Part shown: positions 163 through 12,516 of the stretch, piece after piece
How positions within the stretch are numbered: the stretch's first letter is position 1
How the letters are laid out: each line of letters starts with the position of its first letter
Assembly: GCA_964291655.2 (NCBI GenBank)
Contig: OZ219802.1
Span: forward strand, 384,001-448,000
Source: Chloroflexota bacterium
GTDB taxonomy: Bacteria > Chloroflexota > UBA11872 > VXOZ01
Direction: 5' to 3'
Length of the DNA stretch: 64,000 nucleotides
Made by a program: the position numbers and the translations under genes
The notes under the pieces: model-generated
Database searches by the model: none
What the model was told of the DNA's origin: nothing
The model's input: only the letters and a program-made list of their open reading frames with translations

Positions 163-1458
163 ATGGACCGCATCACCCTTGAGAACTTCCGCTGTTTCCG
201 AGAGAAGCAATCAGCGCGTTTGGCCCCGCTGACCCTTCTTGTTGGCAACAATAGTACGGGAAAGACATCTTTCTTGGCGCTAGTCCGCGCGTTATGGGAC
301 ACCGCCTTCTTGGACAGAGTACCGGACTTTCGAGAGGATCCATTCGACCTTGGTACGTTTCAAGACATCGCTCACAATCGCGGCGGTAGAGGTAGCCAAG
401 CAACATCTTTCGATGCAGGATTCAACTACAGAGAAAAACAAACTCCAATCAAGACAAAAAGAGGCATTTCATTTCACGTCTCATTTATTGAACGCAATTC
501 TGTCCCCTATCCGATCATGCACTCCATCACCGGGAACAATGTAGAGTTCCAAGCAGCCAAGCAGGAGGATGGGAGCTACCTCCTGCGTCTTGGCGCACCT
601 GATTCCAGTAGAGAGGTAGCTGTAGACCACGGAATATTCTTGCAAGATGAAATGTTCGTATTTCCTCTAAAGCATTTAATTTCAGAATTCGCTAGACGTG
701 ACAGAGGCGATGAGCTAAAGGAATTGACCGAAATCCTACATGAGTCATTGAGTTCAGTAATCGAAGGAAAACGACCTGTTGCGAGTGCACCGATCCGTTC
801 GCGCCCACGCCGTACGTACGATCCATCTCGCCCTACAAGGGATCCTGAAGGTGAATACGTGCCCACATTTCTAGCAAGCATCTCTGGCCGTAAAAAGAAA
901 GACTGGATAGTTCTTCGAGACGCGCTCGAAGAATTCGGGCGAGAATCAGGACTGTTTGATGAGATTGACATTAAGCTACTTGGCAAGACTGAAGGATCAC
1001 CATTCCAAGTTCAAGTTCGAAAGTTTGGCGGACGATTGAAAGGCGTCAAGCGCAATCTTATAGACGTTGGCTACGGCGTGAGCCAAGCGTTGCCGCTACT
1101 TACCGAGCTACTTCGTGAAGATGCGTCTTCCATGTACTTGATGCAACAACCAGAAGTTCACCTCCATCCCAGCGCCCAAGCCGCCCTCGGCAGCCTATTT
1201 TGCAAACTTGCCGGCTCGGAATTTCAACTCATTGTAGAGACTCACAGCAACTATATCCTTGACCGCGTCCGCATGGATGTTCGCGACAAGAAGACAGATC
1301 TCAAACCGGAAGACGTTTCGATCCTCTTCTTCGAAGCCGGCGAGCTTGACGTCACCATTCATTCACTGCGTCTGGACCAAGAAGGCAATGTCCTGGATGC
1401 GCCGCCGGGATACGGGCAGTTTTTCATGGATGAAACACGACGCTCTATCGGAATCTAA
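163..1458 (+). CDS. ABC-type (AAA_21/AAA_15, DUF3696-like) ATPase, defence-associated type
   Basis: N-terminal 'ITLENFRCF', Walker A GNNSTGKT, signature-like DVGYGVSQ, Walker B region YLMQQPEVHLHP, H-loop VETHS; no transmembrane partner. Confidence 0.85.
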   Translation: MDRITLENFRCFREKQSARLAPLTLLVGNNSTGKTSFLALVRALWDTAFLDRVPDFREDPFDLGTFQDIAHNRGGRGSQATSFDAGFNYREKQTPIKTKRGISFHVSFIERNSVPYPIMHSITGNNVEFQAAKQEDGSYLLRLGAPDSSREVAVDHGIFLQDEMFVFPLKHLISEFARRDRGDELKELTEILHESLSSVIEGKRPVASAPIRSRPRRTYDPSRPTRDPEGEYVPTFLASISGRKKKDWIVLRDALEEFGRESGLFDEIDIKLLGKTEGSPFQVQVRKFGGRLKGVKRNLIDVGYGVSQALPLLTELLREDASSMYLMQQPEVHLHPSAQAALGSLFCKLAGSEFQLIVETHSNYILDRVRMDVRDKKTDLKPEDVSILFFEAGELDVTIHSLRLDQEGNVLDAPPGYGQFFMDETRRSIGI

Positions 1459-1929
1459 ATGTGTACGATTATCGACGCTAACGTGAGAGACCAGGTCTTT
1501 GGTGACAGCCGACCGAAAGCGGGGGAATACCTTTTCGACCAGCTAAACAGTGATATGAAGAATCTGAAGCTTGTCGTAGGCGGCAAGCTCCTGCAGGAAC
1601 TTAGCCAGTCTACGGCATTTAATACTTGGCTTCAGACTGCACTTCAGTTTGGTAGGGCACAACGGGTTCCTGACGAAGAGGTGGAAATCGCGGCCAAAGA
1701 GTTGCAGCAAAAACAGATCTGCACATCCGACGATGAGCACGTGGTTGCTCTCGCGGAAGTAAGCGGAGCACGCTTACTGTTTACAAACGACAAGCCCCTG
1801 CAGAAAGACTTTGGCAATCGACAGATTCTTGGAGGCATCCAAGGGAAAGTCTACACGACTGTGAAGTACGAACACGTCACAAGTACGCATAAGGCACTTC
1901 TCAGACGTACCGACCTTTGTGGCACTTAG
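1459..1929 (+). CDS. PIN-domain protein (putative RNase toxin)
   Basis: IIDANV at the N-terminus, SDDEHVVALA and LFTNDKPL acidic motifs typical of PIN; ATG directly follows the ATPase TAA. Confidence 0.7.
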   Translation: MCTIIDANVRDQVFGDSRPKAGEYLFDQLNSDMKNLKLVVGGKLLQELSQSTAFNTWLQTALQFGRAQRVPDEEVEIAAKELQQKQICTSDDEHVVALAEVSGARLLFTNDKPLQKDFGNRQILGGIQGKVYTTVKYEHVTSTHKALLRRTDLCGT

Positions 1930-5826: not shown

Positions 5827-7452
5827 ATGCCCAAAGACCGCATGCTCAGCGTAGAAGAAGCGTTCGCGCGCATCGTCTCCCAGTTCTCCGTACTTGAAAC
5901 GGAGACAGTGCCCCTAATGGACACGCTCGGCCGCGTGCTGGCGGAGGACGTGGTGAGCGCCGAAGACGTTCCGGCTTTCGATAACTCGGCAATGGACGGC
6001 TACGCCGTGCGCTTTGCCGACACCAAGGCGGCGAGCGAGGCGCAGCCGGTACCCTTGCGCGTGGTTGGCGACCTGGCCGCCGGTTCAGTTCCTTCTAACC
6101 CACTGGGGGCTGGCGAGGCCGTGCGCATCATGACCGGCGCGCCGGTACCGCCGGGGAGCGACGCTGTGGTGCCGTTTGAGGATACCGACCGCACCGACTG
6201 GGCGAAATTCGGCACGCCCCCCGGCGCAAGCGGCGATCCTGCCACCGTCGGCATCCTGCTGGCGCCGGAGTACCAGGACAACGTGCGTTTTCGCGCGGAA
6301 GACATCAAAGCCGACGAGACCGTGCTCTTGCAAGGACAACGCCTGCGTCCTGCCGAAATTGGTGTGATGGCCTCTTTGGGAAAGTCACAGGTCGCAGTCT
6401 ACCGGCGGCCCGTGGTGGCCGTGATCCCCACCGGTGACGAGGTGATCGAGATTGACCAGCCTTTGCAGCCGGGGCAAGTGCGCAATAGCGCGGCCCACGC
6501 CTTGGAAGCGCTTGTCACTCGCTATGGCGGCATTCCTCGACGACTGCCCGTGGTCGGTGACACAGTTGAAGAGACCCGCGCGGCGCTGCTCTCCTGCCTC
6601 GATTGTGACCTGATCGTGACGATCGGCGGGGTCTCCATGGGCGACTATGACCTCGTGCGCAACGTGCTGGGCGCGGAAGGCGAAATAGATTTCTGGCGCA
6701 TCCGCATGCGCCCCGGCAAGCCGTTGGCTTTCGGACACATTGAGGGACCAGCACGTGCCGCTGATGCCAGCGCACGACCAGATAGAGTAGCGGACACCTC
6801 CGTCATTCCGGCGCAAGCCGGAATCCAGTCTTCGCCCTGCTCACCAGAAGACCCGGTCGCATCCGTCAAGCCCACGAGCGCAACCGAAGAGTATGCAGGT
6901 ACGTCCGACACTCCCGCGCAATCGGGAATACTTCCCTCTCCTGGGGGAGAGGGTCAGAGTGAGGGGGCATTTCCCGCGGAGGTTTCTGGTCCCATCACTC
7001 CCGCGAATGCCTCAGATTCCGTCATTCCCGCAATTGTCTCTGATTCTGTCATTCCCGCGAAAGCGGGAATCCATCTTACTTCCGATGCTCCCAGCCGCCG
7101 CGTCCCCGTGGTCGGCCTGCCCGGCAATCCGGTCTCGGCTTATGTCACCTTCGAGGAATTCGTCCGCCCGGCGCTGCTCGTCATGCAGGGCCACACACAC
7201 CTGCACAAGACCACCGTCACGGCCCGCTTCCTCGACAGCATGGAAAACCACGGCCGCCGCCAGTTCGTGCGCGTGATCGTCGAGCGCGACGACCACGGCT
7301 ACACCGCGCGTCTCACCGGCGAGCAGGGCTCGCAGCTTCTCACGTCCCTCGCCAAAGCCAACGGCCTCGCCATCATCTCCGAGCACACCACTTATGTCGA
7401 GCCCGGCAGCGACGTCACCGTGCAGATGCTCGACTGGCCGGAAGAGGCGTGA
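5827..7452 (+). CDS. moeA: Molybdopterin molybdotransferase MoeA with a ~116-aa repeat-derived insertion
   Basis: FDNSAMDGYA, RIMTGAP, TGDE, GGVSMGDYD, MRPGKPLAFG, GLPGNPVS, GSQLLTSLAKANG. Confidence 0.93.
   Translation: MPKDRMLSVEEAFARIVSQFSVLETETVPLMDTLGRVLAEDVVSAEDVPAFDNSAMDGYAVRFADTKAASEAQPVPLRVVGDLAAGSVPSNPLGAGEAVRIMTGAPVPPGSDAVVPFEDTDRTDWAKFGTPPGASGDPATVGILLAPEYQDNVRFRAEDIKADETVLLQGQRLRPAEIGVMASLGKSQVAVYRRPVVAVIPTGDEVIEIDQPLQPGQVRNSAAHALEALVTRYGGIPRRLPVVGDTVEETRAALLSCLDCDLIVTIGGVSMGDYDLVRNVLGAEGEIDFWRIRMRPGKPLAFGHIEGPARAADASARPDRVADTSVIPAQAGIQSSPCSPEDPVASVKPTSATEEYAGTSDTPAQSGILPSPGGEGQSEGAFPAEVSGPITPANASDSVIPAIVSDSVIPAKAGIHLTSDAPSRRVPVVGLPGNPVSAYVTFEEFVRPALLVMQGHTHLHKTTVTARFLDSMENHGRRQFVRVIVERDDHGYTARLTGEQGSQLLTSLAKANGLAIISEHTTYVEPGSDVTVQMLDWPEEA
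6748..7095 (+). repeat. Cluster of palindromic repeats inserted in frame in moeA
   Basis: GTCATTCCGGCGCAAGCCGGAATCCA (6802-6827), GTCATTCCCGCGAAAGCGGGAATCCA (7048-7073), partial GTCATTCCCGC (7021), CCCTCTCCTGGGGGAGAGGGTCAGAGTGAGGGG (6934-6966). Confidence 0.85.
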
Positions 7453-7843: not shown

Positions 7844-8048
7844 ACTCACTCCAGCGAATTCGTCGAGATGCCTGTCACCTGCTAGCGATTGTCCCTTGTC
7901 CGCTGCTCTGCTACACTCTACCCAACAATGCGGGGCAATGTCATTTGATGCAGATTTGCACTCCACTTAGCGGTGTCGTTCTGGACAATGCCGATGATTG
8001 AACTTGAGTCACCGCTACTCTAGCCCGCGTCGCCAGAGGAAGCCACAC

Positions 8049-8210
8049 ATGTTGATCCAGTGGATGTCGACGCTCAGCACCGTGGACACCATGCTCTTCT
8101 TCATCTCGCTCGTCGTGATCTTCCTCATGCTCGCCATCCCCTTCGCCCTGCTCTTCTCCGTCGCCATCATCGACGAAATCCTCTCCAACCGCTTCAGCAG
8201 CCTGGATTAG
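8049..8210 (+). CDS. Small single-pass membrane protein (53 aa)
   Basis: ATG at 8049 after AGAGGA RBS; strong C-ending codon bias; one long hydrophobic stretch. Confidence 0.6.
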   Translation: MLIQWMSTLSTVDTMLFFISLVVIFLMLAIPFALLFSVAIIDEILSNRFSSLD

Positions 8211-8248
8211 CCCGTCGCTTGCCTCTTGGCTGCCTAGCTCCAATCCAT

Positions 8249-9994
8249 TTACGACGACTCTAAGGAGTCGTTTGCCTTCAAGAAGTCCTCGGGGGCTGTA
8301 AAGGCATTCAAGAAGAGGGGAGTACCGGCAAATGAAAGAGGAGAAACGGGGCCTATGGTCATGAACGAGTACTCCCGAGAGGCTAGGTCGAACGATGATT
8401 GCGGATCACGGAAGAGTTGATAGAGTTCTAGGGCTTTGCTGCGGCCACCAACTAGATCACGCAGAGCCTGAAATTCACTACCCATCGACAGACCAAAACC
8501 GAAGAAGTAGATACGCAATTGATCTGCAATTGCGCGGTCCAGACTTGACAGCGTAGGTGAAATGAACATCCAACCAACCCCATACTTTCGGGTTGTCCGC
8601 ACCGAGTCTATAAAGATTCTCCGGACTTGCTTGATAGTCTCATTGTCAAGACTTCCAGATGGGGCTAAACGATGTGCTTCATCCATTAAGACTAACGTAT
8701 TGAGACTCTTCTTATTGGCATAAGCGTGCTCAGCAGAGACACGAATTCCTTCCAAGAGCCGCCTAATAATGAGTGCCTGAATTGTCTCGTTCCAAAACAA
8801 ACTTTCACTACTCTGAGCTGCTAGGTCCACTATGATCAGAGGTTTGTCTTGGGGATTGAACAAGCTGCTCAGGATTGACCCCACCGATTGTGTTCCGGAT
8901 CGACTCTTGTCAAATAGGCGAGTAATTGGTTGCCAATACTCATAGAATTCATCGGGGTCAGCATCGACATACTGCGAATTAAAGCGATTTCGAGATTCAG
9001 CCCCAAGGTAGAACAGTTCCTGCACACTCTCTTGGCCAAGAATACCCCAAGCCTTTTCGAAAGACTCCCGTTTGTGCAGGTCTGTCAGTTTGACCCTCTT
9101 CTTCTGCAGATTGTCACTCAAGACACCGGCAGCTGCTTCTTGCTTCCCGCCTTTAGATACGCTGAGCCTATCAAAAAACGAGGACTCGCTAAGGACTTGG
9201 GCAAACAAGTCCCACCTATCAAGAACTAGATTCTGCACGCTTATGACCCTCGTCGTTTTCTTGATCCCAGCCAATACTTCCTTGACCGGAAGCTGAAAAC
9301 TCCCCATAGCTCCCGAACCCGAAACATCCTGCGAGAATTCACCTTTTGGGTCGATTACTAGAATGCCCATTCTCTTGTAACGGGCGTAAGCCAGCATGAT
9401 CATTCTTGCTAAGACTGACTTTCCCGAACCCGTCTTGCCGAAAATCCCAAGGTGATAGGCTTCTCCTGCTCCATCAGCACCGGTATCGAAGTGCTTGAAC
9501 CACAGCGGTAGCTTAGGCTTTGAGCCGTAGACATGACCCAAGTAAAAGATCTGTTCCTTGTATGGTTCGAGCAAGACTTCCAAGACCTGATCATCAACTA
9601 GATGTACGTACGTTCCTGTAGCCGGTACCGTCCCAAGACTGCTGGGGCGGTACTTTCCATTCTGGTCAGAAAAGACTGCGCTGACTCCCATCTCACCTTG
9701 GTGGGTATCCTGACGTTCGCTCACAGCATCGACCGTGCCTCGCTGGCGAATCAGGCTCCGCATTGTAGGGTCTTCATGCCAGATGTTTCGCAGTGCTATT
9801 TCAGTAATCTGTCCGAGCGCGTAATGGTCAGAGTTATCTTGTAGGTAACGAAACAAAGCCAGTTCGCCTATTAGCTTTTTGTTGACAGCACTAGCCAAAA
9901 TGTCAAGCGCAAGTTCCGATGTAGAAGACGGAGAACCAATGACGCCTATTCTCTCGGACTGATCAACCAACTTGCTCATTACTTGAATCGACAT
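8249..9994 (-). CDS. herA: HerA-family (DUF87, FtsK/HerA) ATPase/helicase
   Basis: N-terminal HAS-barrel-like region, Walker A HLGIFGKTGSGKS, IDPKGEF, Walker B LVLMDEAH, arginine finger RKYG. Confidence 0.88.
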   Translation of the reverse strand: MSIQVMSKLVDQSERIGVIGSPSSTSELALDILASAVNKKLIGELALFRYLQDNSDHYALGQITEIALRNIWHEDPTMRSLIRQRGTVDAVSERQDTHQGEMGVSAVFSDQNGKYRPSSLGTVPATGTYVHLVDDQVLEVLLEPYKEQIFYLGHVYGSKPKLPLWFKHFDTGADGAGEAYHLGIFGKTGSGKSVLARMIMLAYARYKRMGILVIDPKGEFSQDVSGSGAMGSFQLPVKEVLAGIKKTTRVISVQNLVLDRWDLFAQVLSESSFFDRLSVSKGGKQEAAAGVLSDNLQKKRVKLTDLHKRESFEKAWGILGQESVQELFYLGAESRNRFNSQYVDADPDEFYEYWQPITRLFDKSRSGTQSVGSILSSLFNPQDKPLIIVDLAAQSSESLFWNETIQALIIRRLLEGIRVSAEHAYANKKSLNTLVLMDEAHRLAPSGSLDNETIKQVRRIFIDSVRTTRKYGVGWMFISPTLSSLDRAIADQLRIYFFGFGLSMGSEFQALRDLVGGRSKALELYQLFRDPQSSFDLASREYSFMTIGPVSPLSFAGTPLFLNAFTAPEDFLKANDSLESS

Positions 9995-9996
9995 TG

Positions 9997-11157
9997 TTAC
10001 CTTCCTGCCTCTGTCCGATAGCTATGAAGGCCAACGAATACATCATCAATGTTGCCTTGGTAGTCTTCCGCAAGATACTGACTGGCAATTTGGCGAAATG
10101 CAGGAACAGCTTGGGGCAAGTGCTTGACCATTCTGTCCGCCAGATAAAGCGGGTATGGTTCCATAATGGCCGCAGTGCCGCACTGGTCCTTGATGCCCTG
10201 CAACGCTATGCTCAGCCGACCTTGATTACTGGCAATGGCTCGGCTCATCTCCAACCGCAAAGCTGGCATATAGGAGTGGGGACGATAGTAGAGAACATAG
10301 ATGTCGCCCAAGAGACTAGTGACTTGGTCGACCAGTTTGTTTATTTCATCTCGTTCAGCGTTTTCGACAATTCCATCGACCACTGAAGTGTCGATGTGCC
10401 ATGGCTGAGAAGGTTGCAATAGTTGAGTAGGTGACGTGTATTCGCCTGCTTCCAAGACAGAGCTAAGTAGTCCACGGTCATCATATGACTCGGGCCAGCC
10501 CAATTCACTACCTATTTCTCGACGAGTAGTGTACTTTGGCACCGCTACCCACTGACGGTCACTACGCTGGGCTGCTAACACAGTACAGTAAGCATCCAAG
10601 AAAAACCTGACTCTCCTGATTAAGTATTCTTCAACGGTCTTGAGGTTTGGATACTCTTTAGCTTTGTTGAATCCTTGATTGAAGTATATGGCTGGCGTGG
10701 TAAATGACCCATCCAAAAGTACAAGCTCGTGAGGGGCGTCTGCGGCCAAGTGCAATTCCATACCAATCATCCCTGCGCGCAAGACAGACCCAGTATCAGG
10801 ATTATGGGCTTCAGTCTCGACATGAACAAAGTGAGTGGGCTCGGGCCAGAACCGTTTCTCAGAAGGAGGAGTCAAACCTTCGACCGCTACCGCGCCCGCT
10901 ACGACCAAATCCGTGGCGAGCAGTCTTTCAACGGCATAAGACCCGTCTACACCACAAGTGGTGGGGCTTTGCACTCGTGGCAGGCTGGAGTCACGTCTTG
11001 CCTTGCCAGAGTCAATTAGCTGGTCGCGCCACTCTTGCTTTTTCTTGCGTAACTCCTCAAAGGACTCCAATAGTTCTTTCCCTATTCCCTTTGTTCGGTT
11101 AAGCACCTCGTCAACAAGCGACTTTGGCAATTCCCTAAAGCTAGACTGTTCGTCCAT
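9997..11157 (-). CDS. nurA: NurA-family nuclease
   Basis: TCGVDGS and LVLLDGS catalytic Asp motifs, AVPK, C-terminal PYPLYLADRMVK; start moved to ATG 11157 after GGAGAAG RBS. Confidence 0.85.
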   Translation of the reverse strand: MDEQSSFRELPKSLVDEVLNRTKGIGKELLESFEELRKKKQEWRDQLIDSGKARRDSSLPRVQSPTTCGVDGSYAVERLLATDLVVAGAVAVEGLTPPSEKRFWPEPTHFVHVETEAHNPDTGSVLRAGMIGMELHLAADAPHELVLLDGSFTTPAIYFNQGFNKAKEYPNLKTVEEYLIRRVRFFLDAYCTVLAAQRSDRQWVAVPKYTTRREIGSELGWPESYDDRGLLSSVLEAGEYTSPTQLLQPSQPWHIDTSVVDGIVENAERDEINKLVDQVTSLLGDIYVLYYRPHSYMPALRLEMSRAIASNQGRLSIALQGIKDQCGTAAIMEPYPLYLADRMVKHLPQAVPAFRQIASQYLAEDYQGNIDDVFVGLHSYRTEAGR

Positions 11158-12319
11158 TGCCTTCTCCGTTTGACCATAGCTGCAACTCTTGAGGGCTCCA
11201 GTCAATGTGCCGTTTCTCACGTTGACTACGTGGCATCAGCCATCTTTCACGATACCAACCGAAGAGTTCGCTTACAGGTTGATCATAGTAGTCCAGCTTC
11301 GAAGCACCACCACTTAGGAATTGGCGAGCATTCTCCGCTAACGGAGAAACGAATATCTCTCGATTGATTCCATGATTCCGCCATTCCTGCGGCAACCCCA
11401 ATGCAATGAGCACTTTTTGAAGGACTTCCCTTCTGTTCCTGAAACCATTTCCCCACGCTTGATGCTTAGCAGTAGCCCTTGAGTTTATTCTAGCAAATTC
11501 CACCATAGACTCGTAAATCCCGTTGGAGATGTGGAATTCACCAAACCCACGAGTGAACCCTACCGACCTAAACACCAATCGATCATTGAATCTCAATCGA
11601 TTGTAGAGCGACGACCTACCCAAGGCAGAGGTAGTGGTAACCAGAGCAATCTGCCCGGTTAGCTCTCTTTGCTGAATTAAGGATGCCCTTCCTTCATATT
11701 TGACCCTAAATGCCTCTCGTACTTCATTGCTTGCGGCCAGCAAAGCAATGAGCTTGCCTCCTAGCAAGAATGAATATGGGGGAACCGCTCCCAACACGTA
11801 AGCATCTACAACATGGTGAAGCCTCTCAATTCGACCCTCCTTTTCCCAACCGATCCACTGGTCCCGGTTCTTTAGGCTAAAGACAGGATCCCCCAAGCCG
11901 AAAAGGCCCATCAGCTTGTCCGAGTATTGATCCACTACGAGAAATCTCAATCTTCGCCCATATCCCGAAGACACCGGGATGCTCCAGTGCAGACTTGCAT
12001 ATCGGAATAACAGTTCGTCATTCGTATTCGGATGGACTTCGACCAGCTTGGGGTTGATTTCATCAATATCAATGTCTCTCCCAGAAGCAAAACGTTGTAA
12101 TAGTGAGGGTTCGTGCTTGAGAAGTCCTTTCCTGCGCTGACTCAGTCTATGGTGAACCGCTTCAGAATGCAGGGATCTTATCGTGTCCTTGTCCAAGTCA
12201 TTGGGCAAGTAGAACTGGTTGTCCCGCAGCACAAAACCTTGCTTCTCAAGGGACGCCAGAATGCGTGCTTTGAGGAGTTCTGGATCATTCTTCTCAGTGG
12301 TGTCAGGGTTAGTCGACAA
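11141..12319 (-). CDS. DruA-like (DUF4338) protein
   Basis: WSIPVSSGYGRRLRFLVVD..DKLMGLFGLGDPVF..RDQWIGW, VLGAVPPYSFLLGGKLIA, TTTSALGRSSLYNRL, GFTRGFGEFH match the Druantia DruA pattern as I recall it. Confidence 0.8.
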   Translation of the reverse strand: MSTNPDTTEKNDPELLKARILASLEKQGFVLRDNQFYLPNDLDKDTIRSLHSEAVHHRLSQRRKGLLKHEPSLLQRFASGRDIDIDEINPKLVEVHPNTNDELLFRYASLHWSIPVSSGYGRRLRFLVVDQYSDKLMGLFGLGDPVFSLKNRDQWIGWEKEGRIERLHHVVDAYVLGAVPPYSFLLGGKLIALLAASNEVREAFRVKYEGRASLIQQRELTGQIALVTTTSALGRSSLYNRLRFNDRLVFRSVGFTRGFGEFHISNGIYESMVEFARINSRATAKHQAWGNGFRNRREVLQKVLIALGLPQEWRNHGINREIFVSPLAENARQFLSGGASKLDYYDQPVSELFGWYRERWLMPRSQREKRHIDWSPQELQLWSNGEGNGRTV

Positions 12320-12516
12320 TTGCTAGTCTCGTTCTGCAGTCAGTTTTTCCTGGACCATACCCATTATATGGCAAGATATGGGAATGCATCTGGAGGTAGC
12401 AGCAGCCTTGTCGATTACTTTGGCCGATTCTTGCCCAGCTTGCGAGACACATAGCCGAGCGACGCCAACAGAAGAAACCGTCAGCGTCGCTCCGTGAATT
12501 AGCTGCCTAAACTACC

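Follow-up and report, generated by a model that had tools for sequence, protein, structure and literature searches.

Three adjacent genes, druA, nurA and herA, form a compact cassette in a 64,000-nucleotide stretch of a Chloroflexota genome (GenBank assembly GCA_964291655.2, contig OZ219802.1, positions 384,001 to 448,000 of the forward strand), the whole of which is hereafter called the window. Here, we show that this trio is widespread, mostly in uncultured or thermophilic lineages and in Chloroflexota above all, and that it has been transferred between phyla and is patchily and horizontally spread. We consider it fairly likely that the trio is a mobile cassette for defence against invading phages or plasmids, with NurA-HerA as the effector and DruA as an accessory, and it is probably an unnamed variant of HerA-anchored defence. 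What the analysis shows is which genes are present, that the trio is conserved and mobile, which folds its proteins adopt in models, that their motifs are intact and that the cassette sits at a hotspot. A first-pass annotation of the window, made from its letters alone, had singled out the cassette as a candidate defence system in which NurA-HerA takes the place of DruE, the helicase of type I Druantia, with DruA as a sensor or self-marking enzyme.

Calling of open reading frames (ORFs) places druA, nurA and herA head to tail, in that order, on the minus strand (Table 1). The genes druA and nurA overlap by 17 bp, from the nurA ATG to the druA stop, and 2 bp separate the nurA stop from the herA ATG, so the tight coupling of three co-oriented genes described in the first-pass annotation stands; the longest ORF of nurA begins at a GTG at 11220, and its 386 amino acids (aa) are counted from the ATG. 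The family assignments were matched by hidden Markov models in all three cases: the druA product hit PF14236 (DUF4338) at E 1.1e-113 as its sole Pfam match and the PADLOC model DruA1 (PDLC00002) at E 3.4e-118 (393 bits), NurA hit PF09376 at E 8.6e-7 (29.1 bits, cut-off 21) and HerA hit PF01935, the HerA central domain, at E 7.3e-12. PADLOC has no model that matches NurA and returned for HerA a weak generic HerA model and mad8 (at most 48.6 bits), which agrees with the expectation that no complete known system would be called. NCBIfam holds no model for DruA or NurA and gave only sub-threshold ATPase matches for HerA, and a sequence-level search of the PDB returned nothing for DruA and nothing for NurA. 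By Pfam annotation of the window genes, druA is flanked by nurA and a solute-binding-protein gene, and the leader spans the interval from the druA start to the stop of that neighbour. A promoter in the leader is presumed; a sigma-70 consensus scan of the leader gave no site.

The catalytic motifs, which had been read as intact, were located at residues 70 (VDGS) and 148 (LDGS) of NurA and at residues 186 (GKTGSGKS), 437 (MDEAH) and 469 (RKYG) of HerA, with their key residues invariant in relatives. This holds for D71, G72, D149 and G150 of the two DG[ST] motifs among 36 NurA sequences, and for G186, T188, G189, G191, K192, D438, E439, R469, K470 and G472 among 27 HerA sequences, in which the Walker A, Walker B and RK.G motifs show no variation. 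The NurA model (pLDDT 76.5, with two low-confidence stretches) matched Sulfolobus solfataricus NurA (2ygk_B) with Z 13.4 over 248 residues, a match at the level of the fold, followed by the Thermococcus kodakarensis HerA-NurA complex (9x1l_G, Z 10.4), a chain of the TdpAB complex (Z 8.2) and Deinococcus radiodurans HerA-NurA (Z 7.9), and unrelated rows reached Z 5.4 at most. A profile built from the HerA alignment matched solved HerA-type chains, including TdpA at E 6.7e-9, level with other HerAs.

The first-pass annotation had found neither druB to druE nor mre11 or rad50 nearby, and this is correct for the locus: the window holds no mre11 or rad50 beside the cassette. However, another contig of the same genome carries a Metallophos gene (Mre11-like), an SMC_N gene (Rad50-like), a NurA gene (97 bits), two further genes and a HerA gene (119 bits). 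In this repair cluster (genome G000, contig C1, locus L089, 1617-11218) the two genes that split nurA from herA are a 198-aa ORF and an HpcH/HpaI aldolase gene. BLASTP finds no significant similarity between the DruA-linked NurA and the NurA of the repair cluster (E 0.05), and identity between the two HerAs is 23%. Judged by sequence, the DruA-linked NurA-HerA is thus a divergent paralogue of the repair-type pair of its own genome and not the housekeeping pair, in line with the separation from repair clades that the first-pass annotation had proposed to test.

The cassette lies in an insert with a GC content of 49.4%, between a left flank of 60.6% and a right flank of 59.0%. The hand counts that had first hinted at a foreign composition (28/60 at 11641-11700 and 40/60 at 7201-7260) were exact. 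DNA comparison with five cassette-less congeneric genomes shows that the conserved flanks reach window position 8210, the end of a small conserved plus-strand ORF, and restart at 12516, the stop of the family-5 solute-binding-protein gene. In one of these congeners (G001) the two flanks are approximately 140 bp apart, which represents the empty site, and the other four carry different cargo in the same gap: an N6_N4 methylase-HNH fusion with a large protein (an 826-aa TPR protein or a 1258-aa protein without family match) in G003 and G004, a 324-aa protein with a weak TIR-effector match paired with a PDC-S11/DUF4268 protein (E 2.8e-112) in G007, and an Mrr_cat-like protein in G015. Because the gap of these four congeners holds restriction or defence genes instead of the trio, the trio site is a variable site for defence cargo, in line with the defence-island setting that had been anticipated. 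The DruA-linked type of NurA-HerA was matched in 3 of 16 congeneric species and in none of 24 genomes from other genera of the class. The insert has no terminal inverted or direct repeats and its DNA similarity to distant copies stops within coding sequence, hence the cassette moves as cargo, and the idea of a transposon was rejected.

Two observations concern the borders of the insert. An 8-base word, GCTGCCTA, seen by eye near both ends was considered as a target duplication and rejected because it is missing from the empty site. The ORF that ends exactly at the left border (7998-8210, plus strand) encodes a hydrophobic protein of 70 aa and is kept in congeners, and a longer antisense ORF (7941-8243) is probably spurious.

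To follow the trio across genomes, a species-representative genome collection was searched with an alignment of NurA relatives, which yielded 222 loci, and the best 80 were kept; partners were found in these by tblastn with the window proteins, and by Pfam where tblastn missed. DruA was found by tblastn in 75 of the 80 loci, upstream of NurA on the same strand in 74 and after HerA in one (L033). Two tblastn misses (L043 and L053) have a divergent PF14236 gene upstream, which brings the loci with a DruA-family gene beside NurA to 77 of 80. Of the remaining three, L047 lies on a contig that ends 175 bp upstream of NurA, L057 is split by a Mutator-family transposase and L071 has nothing. HerA was found by tblastn in 78 of 80 loci, and its two misses are a contig end (L060) and a degenerate locus (L062). 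Clustering of all flanking ORFs of the 80 loci gave three shared families, which are the trio, with no fourth conserved gene. The 80 loci carry 15 bacterial phylum labels and one archaeal metagenome-assembled genome (MAG; Thermoproteota), with 49 of the 80 in Chloroflexota, so the conserved gene order that the first-pass annotation would have sought in unrelated taxa does exist. Cultured carriers among the 80 loci include Thermanaerothrix daxensis GNS-1 (L032), Chloroflexus sp. MS-G (L025) and Caldanaerobacter subterraneus DSM 13054 (L079). At E ≤ 0.001, the NurA search gave 2264 homologues, a minority of which were examined for gene context.

The link between the three genes also outlasts divergence and gene reordering. 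Among 401 genomes of the phylum of the window, 28 have DruA, and a partner survey that covered 19 of those 28 found DruA beside this NurA type in 16 of the 28. One more (G192) has a divergent trio in the order NurA-HerA-DruA. The genome G008 has a deeply divergent trio, with 53%, 26% and 36% identity to the DruA, NurA and HerA of the window and an adjoining Eco57I-type methylase. At one locus (L005), a NurA-HerA close to that of the window (79% and 78% identity) is joined to a DruA from another clade (36%), which suggests module exchange. Four IMG/VR contigs contain the trio, and two of them have a type III restriction-modification pair directly before it. In these two loci, catalogued as viral (L121, 90-8979, and L122, 40-8957), the pair upstream of the trio consists of an N6_N4 methylase and a ResIII helicase of approximately 1050-1085 aa, and the res and druA genes of L121 share a 4-bp overlap.

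DruA was modelled with AlphaFold2 (pLDDT 87.7, pTM 0.87). Compared with solved structures, it matched GNAT-superfamily folds in all 50 listed VIA-align rows (Z 7.5-8.8, residues approximately 85-347), and the best Foldseek matches were likewise all GNAT folds, NAT10 and TmcA among them, with a best E of only approximately 1e-3. The GNAT fold of the model agrees with comparative work in which DUF4338 is called a GNAT, as stated in the accessible text of PMC10853773. The guess of a GNAT or Mom-like fold made in the first-pass annotation is therefore consistent with the model, with phage Mu Mom at rank 3 (Z 8.6) and the longest alignment (172 residues). However, Mom shares this level with ordinary GNATs that act on proteins or small molecules and with TacT-type toxins that acetylate tRNA (TacT3, Z 7.8), all within 1 Z unit, and protein N-acetyltransferases make up most of the best fold matches. 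Two stretches, G-G-K behind the central strand and T-T-T-S..Y-N-R, vary little or not at all among 41 DruA sequences and may form a putative cofactor loop. DruA is also the least conserved of the three proteins in 59 of the 65 loci in which all three aligned well; the median identities to the window proteins are 39% (DruA), 58% (NurA) and 62% (HerA).

DruA, probably an accessory module, is common to type I Druantia and the trio, and it is paired in the two with unrelated effectors, DruE and NurA-HerA. Two genomes of the phylum sample (G248 and G392) have DruA beside a DruE1-type helicase. At the first (L112, 205-11949), DruA and DruE1 are accompanied by proteins of 777 aa and 811 aa that PADLOC does not call DruB, DruC or DruD, and at the second (L113, 14-7735) a DruA of 546 aa lies beside a PD-(D/E)XK nuclease and DruE1. 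In a quick, unrooted maximum-likelihood tree of 49 DruAs with a small DruE-linked sample (four plasmid-borne, two Chloroflexota), the six DruE-linked DruAs form one clade (SH-aLRT 97), with two long branches and two large clades of NurA-HerA-linked DruAs next to it, and one change of partner suffices to explain the labels. In the window genome, which is 97.55% complete, the DruE hallmark PF09369 had no match, while a control matched in 8 of 14 genomes, and there is only one DruA, which speaks against a Druantia split over the genome. No DruB-, DruC- or DruD-like genes lie beside druA at the locus, the scope of that search, since the DruB to DruD models were not run genome-wide. DruA fusions are to DNA-related domains: an N-terminal DUF4096 domain (IS5-type, DNA-binding-type) in three Poribacteria loci (L006, L009 and L016; ORFs of 643-682 aa) and HsdM_N in a Gemmatales MAG (L040, 311-1957). 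A further protein of 1119 aa (P0122) appears to be a tandem DruA and has no similarity to NurA or HerA in direct comparison.

From these families and folds we infer the defence role, a NurA-HerA complex and all that is said here on the substrate of DruA. HerA would assemble into an ATPase ring and drive DNA into the nuclease NurA, with the archaeal HerA-NurA end-resection complex as a model, and the two would degrade DNA with ends or other points of entry, for example injected or replicating phage DNA. DruA would be an acyl-CoA-dependent GNAT-fold transferase accessory to NurA-HerA, and it probably sets the specificity because it is the fastest diverging of the three. It could do so by an acyl-type mark on nucleic acid or by modification of a protein, either one in the host complex or one made by the invader, and we regard a nucleic acid and a protein as about equally probable substrates.

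How DruA would act can be read in two ways, each of which we hold only tentatively. One follows restriction-modification logic: DruA would acyl-mark host DNA in the manner of Mom and NurA-HerA would degrade unmarked DNA, mirroring TdpC and TdpAB of the TdpABC system. As far as the accessible accounts of TdpABC go, both systems combine a transferase with a NurA-like and a HerA-like protein, and the structural match of NurA to the TdpAB chain, the profile match of HerA to TdpA, the high rank of Mom and the HsdM_N and DUF4096 fusions all point the same way, as do the published GNAT label of DUF4338 and the idea of GNAT/TGT as a possible DNA-marking module, discussed in the accessible parts of PMC10853773 and PMC12839542. 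Against it stand the ties of Mom with ordinary GNATs and tRNA-acetylating toxins, and a genus in which NurA-HerA of this type survives without DruA. The stronger form of the idea, that DruA is a nucleic-acid acyltransferase writing a previously unknown acyl-type DNA mark read both by DruE in Druantia and by NurA-HerA, is more doubtful still. The other reading, neither more nor less tentative than the first, is that DruA is a protein acetyltransferase, a sensor or switch acting on NurA, HerA or a phage protein that licenses or restrains an end-entering nuclease needing no self-mark. This is consistent with the protein N-acetyltransferases among its top fold matches, with its fast, sensor-like evolution, with its pairing with two unrelated effectors and with the existence of NurA-HerA without it, although the domains to which DruA is fused are DNA-related and not protein-binding.

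Two further explanations depart from defence altogether. In archaea and Deinococcus, NurA-HerA is a genuine resection machine according to PDB entry titles, the neighbours of the trio are mostly housekeeping-like and the pair is fixed in one genus, all of which would fit a second, specialised DNA-repair or recombination module, that is, an alternative end-resection machine under acetyltransferase control. We judge this improbable, given that the genome already has a canonical Mre11-Rad50-linked pair and that the trio combines a patchy distribution, foreign GC and inter-phylum transfer with a hotspot for defence cargo. Lower yet is the chance that the trio is the own machinery of a mobile element, processing or pumping DNA for transfer, or a pure addiction module. 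HerA/FtsK ATPases serve conjugation too, and HerA has weak VirB4, TraG and CedD matches in Pfam and NCBIfam; several carrier contigs are only 3-5 kb, and a serine recombinase, a T4 coupling protein or a transposase adjoins a few loci. However, the 80 loci share no integrase, transposase or relaxase alongside the trio, and neither the absence of terminal repeats nor the point at which distant DNA similarity ends favours this explanation.

Several findings weigh against a mobile defence cassette built around DruA. All nine genomes of one genus (g116) carry a NurA-HerA of this type without DruA (42% and 57% identity to the NurA and HerA of the window), with a conserved UDPGT-type glycosyltransferase gene on one side and a gene for a P-type ATPase on the other, and one of the nine copies is a pseudogene full of stop codons (G339). 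NurA-HerA can therefore persist alone and may be domesticated in this genus. Because the pair is kept without DruA throughout g116, the model of DruA as an obligatory self-marking enzyme is weakened; of the overall interpretation in the first-pass annotation, the linkage, the separateness from repair, the fold and the context have held, and a self-marking DruA that is indispensable has become less likely. NurA and HerA are also conserved across phyla unusually well for defence genes, the Pfam match of NurA is a modest one (29 bits) and its structural model has low-confidence parts. No fusion of DruA to NurA or HerA was found, and the 22 longer DruA-containing proteins have no precomputed NurA or HerA Pfam domain. 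A curated plasmid collection gave one weak NurA match and a phage collection none, with no close relative in either, and approximately 14 of 86 immediate neighbours are defence or mobile genes, the rest being housekeeping-like, in a count that has no control. The possibility that the glycosyltransferase replaces DruA in g116 was also considered and rejected: the UDPGT-type gene is 89-96% identical between species compared with 63-92% for NurA, so it is a conserved flank and not a partner of the module.

A defence cassette of NurA-HerA and DruA, which remains the explanation we favour, would have consequences beyond this locus. Type I Druantia is defined in part by DruA, a protein that has no function assigned to it, and the trio offers a simpler, biochemically tractable two-protein effector; because DruA is wired to it, the three-gene system allows a direct test of the role of DruA. 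If the cassette is defensive, NurA joins the HerA-driven immune effectors and, together with TdpAB, an archaeal-type end-resection machine would have been recruited for defence more than once. If DruA does write a DNA mark, the trio would represent restriction-modification-like immunity of a new class, and DruA would gain its first known function. Defence screens on cultured bacteria may have missed the trio because its carriers are mostly from uncultured or thermophilic lineages.

Elsewhere in the window, positions 163-1929 (plus strand) encode a 431-aa AAA_15/AAA_21 ATPase followed directly by a 156-aa ORF without family match, at 49-50% GC. The best PADLOC match of the ATPase is NsnB of Menshen (E 1.5e-45), followed by PDC-M55A and AriA, and the two genes are possibly a second small defence pair. 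Two in-frame copies of a 26-base palindromic REP-like element (6802-6827 and 7048-7073, plus strand) lie inside the moeA ORF (5827-7452), and the element has dozens of near-identical copies in congeneric genomes. The MoCF_biosynth match of the moeA protein covers 253 residues for a profile of 144 positions, so the protein carries an insert.

Table 1 Features of the cassette, its site and related loci (window coordinates unless a locus is named)
Feature	Position	Strand	Description
druA	11141-12319	minus	392 aa; DUF4338/DruA; helical N-terminal part, then GNAT-fold core at approximately 85-347
nurA	9997-11157	minus	386 aa from ATG; divergent NurA-type nuclease, PF09376
herA	8249-9994	minus	581 aa; HerA/FtsK-type P-loop ATPase, PF01935
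Leader upstream of druA	12320-12515	minus	196 bp, non-coding, within the insert; promoter presumed
Low-GC insert	8211-12515	.	4.3 kb; limits set against a congener with an empty site
g116 pair	L109 4171-7100; L110 5603-8520		DruA-less NurA-HerA
Loci L105-L108	same site as window 8211-12515		congeners G003, G004, G007 and G015; variable cargo

None of the PADLOC systems or NCBIfam models describes the trio, and the literature searched, with supplementary gene-neighbourhood tables outside its scope, contained no paper in which DruA, DUF4338 or Druantia is connected to NurA; the earlier statement that no named system has this composition thus holds for these sources. The trio shares the DruA family with type I Druantia (DruABCDE), and the DruA of the window is approximately 40% identical over 93% of its length to that of canonical plasmid-borne DruABCDE-like loci. 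Type I Druantia differs in having DruE, a large YprA-like helicase with DUF1998/MZB, whose hallmark the window genome lacks, and in DruAs that form a clade of their own apart from the NurA-HerA-linked ones. Sir2-HerA and DUF4297-HerA (Gao_Her) likewise couple a HerA-type ATPase to an effector, which is Sir2 or DUF4297 there and NurA here. The HerA/FtsK 'capture' systems in the accessible text of PMC12839542 resemble the trio in the same respect and again differ in the effector, and the BRC system of the same text also carries a GNAT, whereas the trio has neither PglZ nor TGT. Mom, NAT10/TmcA and the TacT toxins share the GNAT fold with DruA, a tie at the level of the fold only (5-16% identity). 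The pair of the trio has both folds and the catalytic and ATPase motifs in common with repair-type NurA-HerA of archaea and Deinococcus, but a repair-type pair would be expected to be linked to mre11-rad50 and to be stably and vertically inherited, whereas the pair described here is unlinked, patchy, foreign in GC and mobile.

The TdpAB complex of the phosphorothioate-based TdpABC system (PDB 8wet) was reportedly described by An et al. in Nat Chem Biol in 2025. TdpABC also appears in a table row of PMC13223576, and in the accessible text of PMC12914056 tdpC is described as a single phosphorothioate synthesis gene. Within the limits of these partial accounts, TdpABC is the nearest described architecture: like the trio, it has three genes for one modification-type enzyme, a HerA-like ATPase and a NurA-like protein. 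The two differ in the third gene, which serves phosphorothioate synthesis in TdpABC and encodes a GNAT-fold DruA with PF14236 alone in the trio, a distinction drawn from the Pfam match and the modelled fold. The NurA of the window is structurally nearer to archaeal NurA than to the TdpAB chain, and its HerA is no nearer to TdpA than to other solved HerAs.

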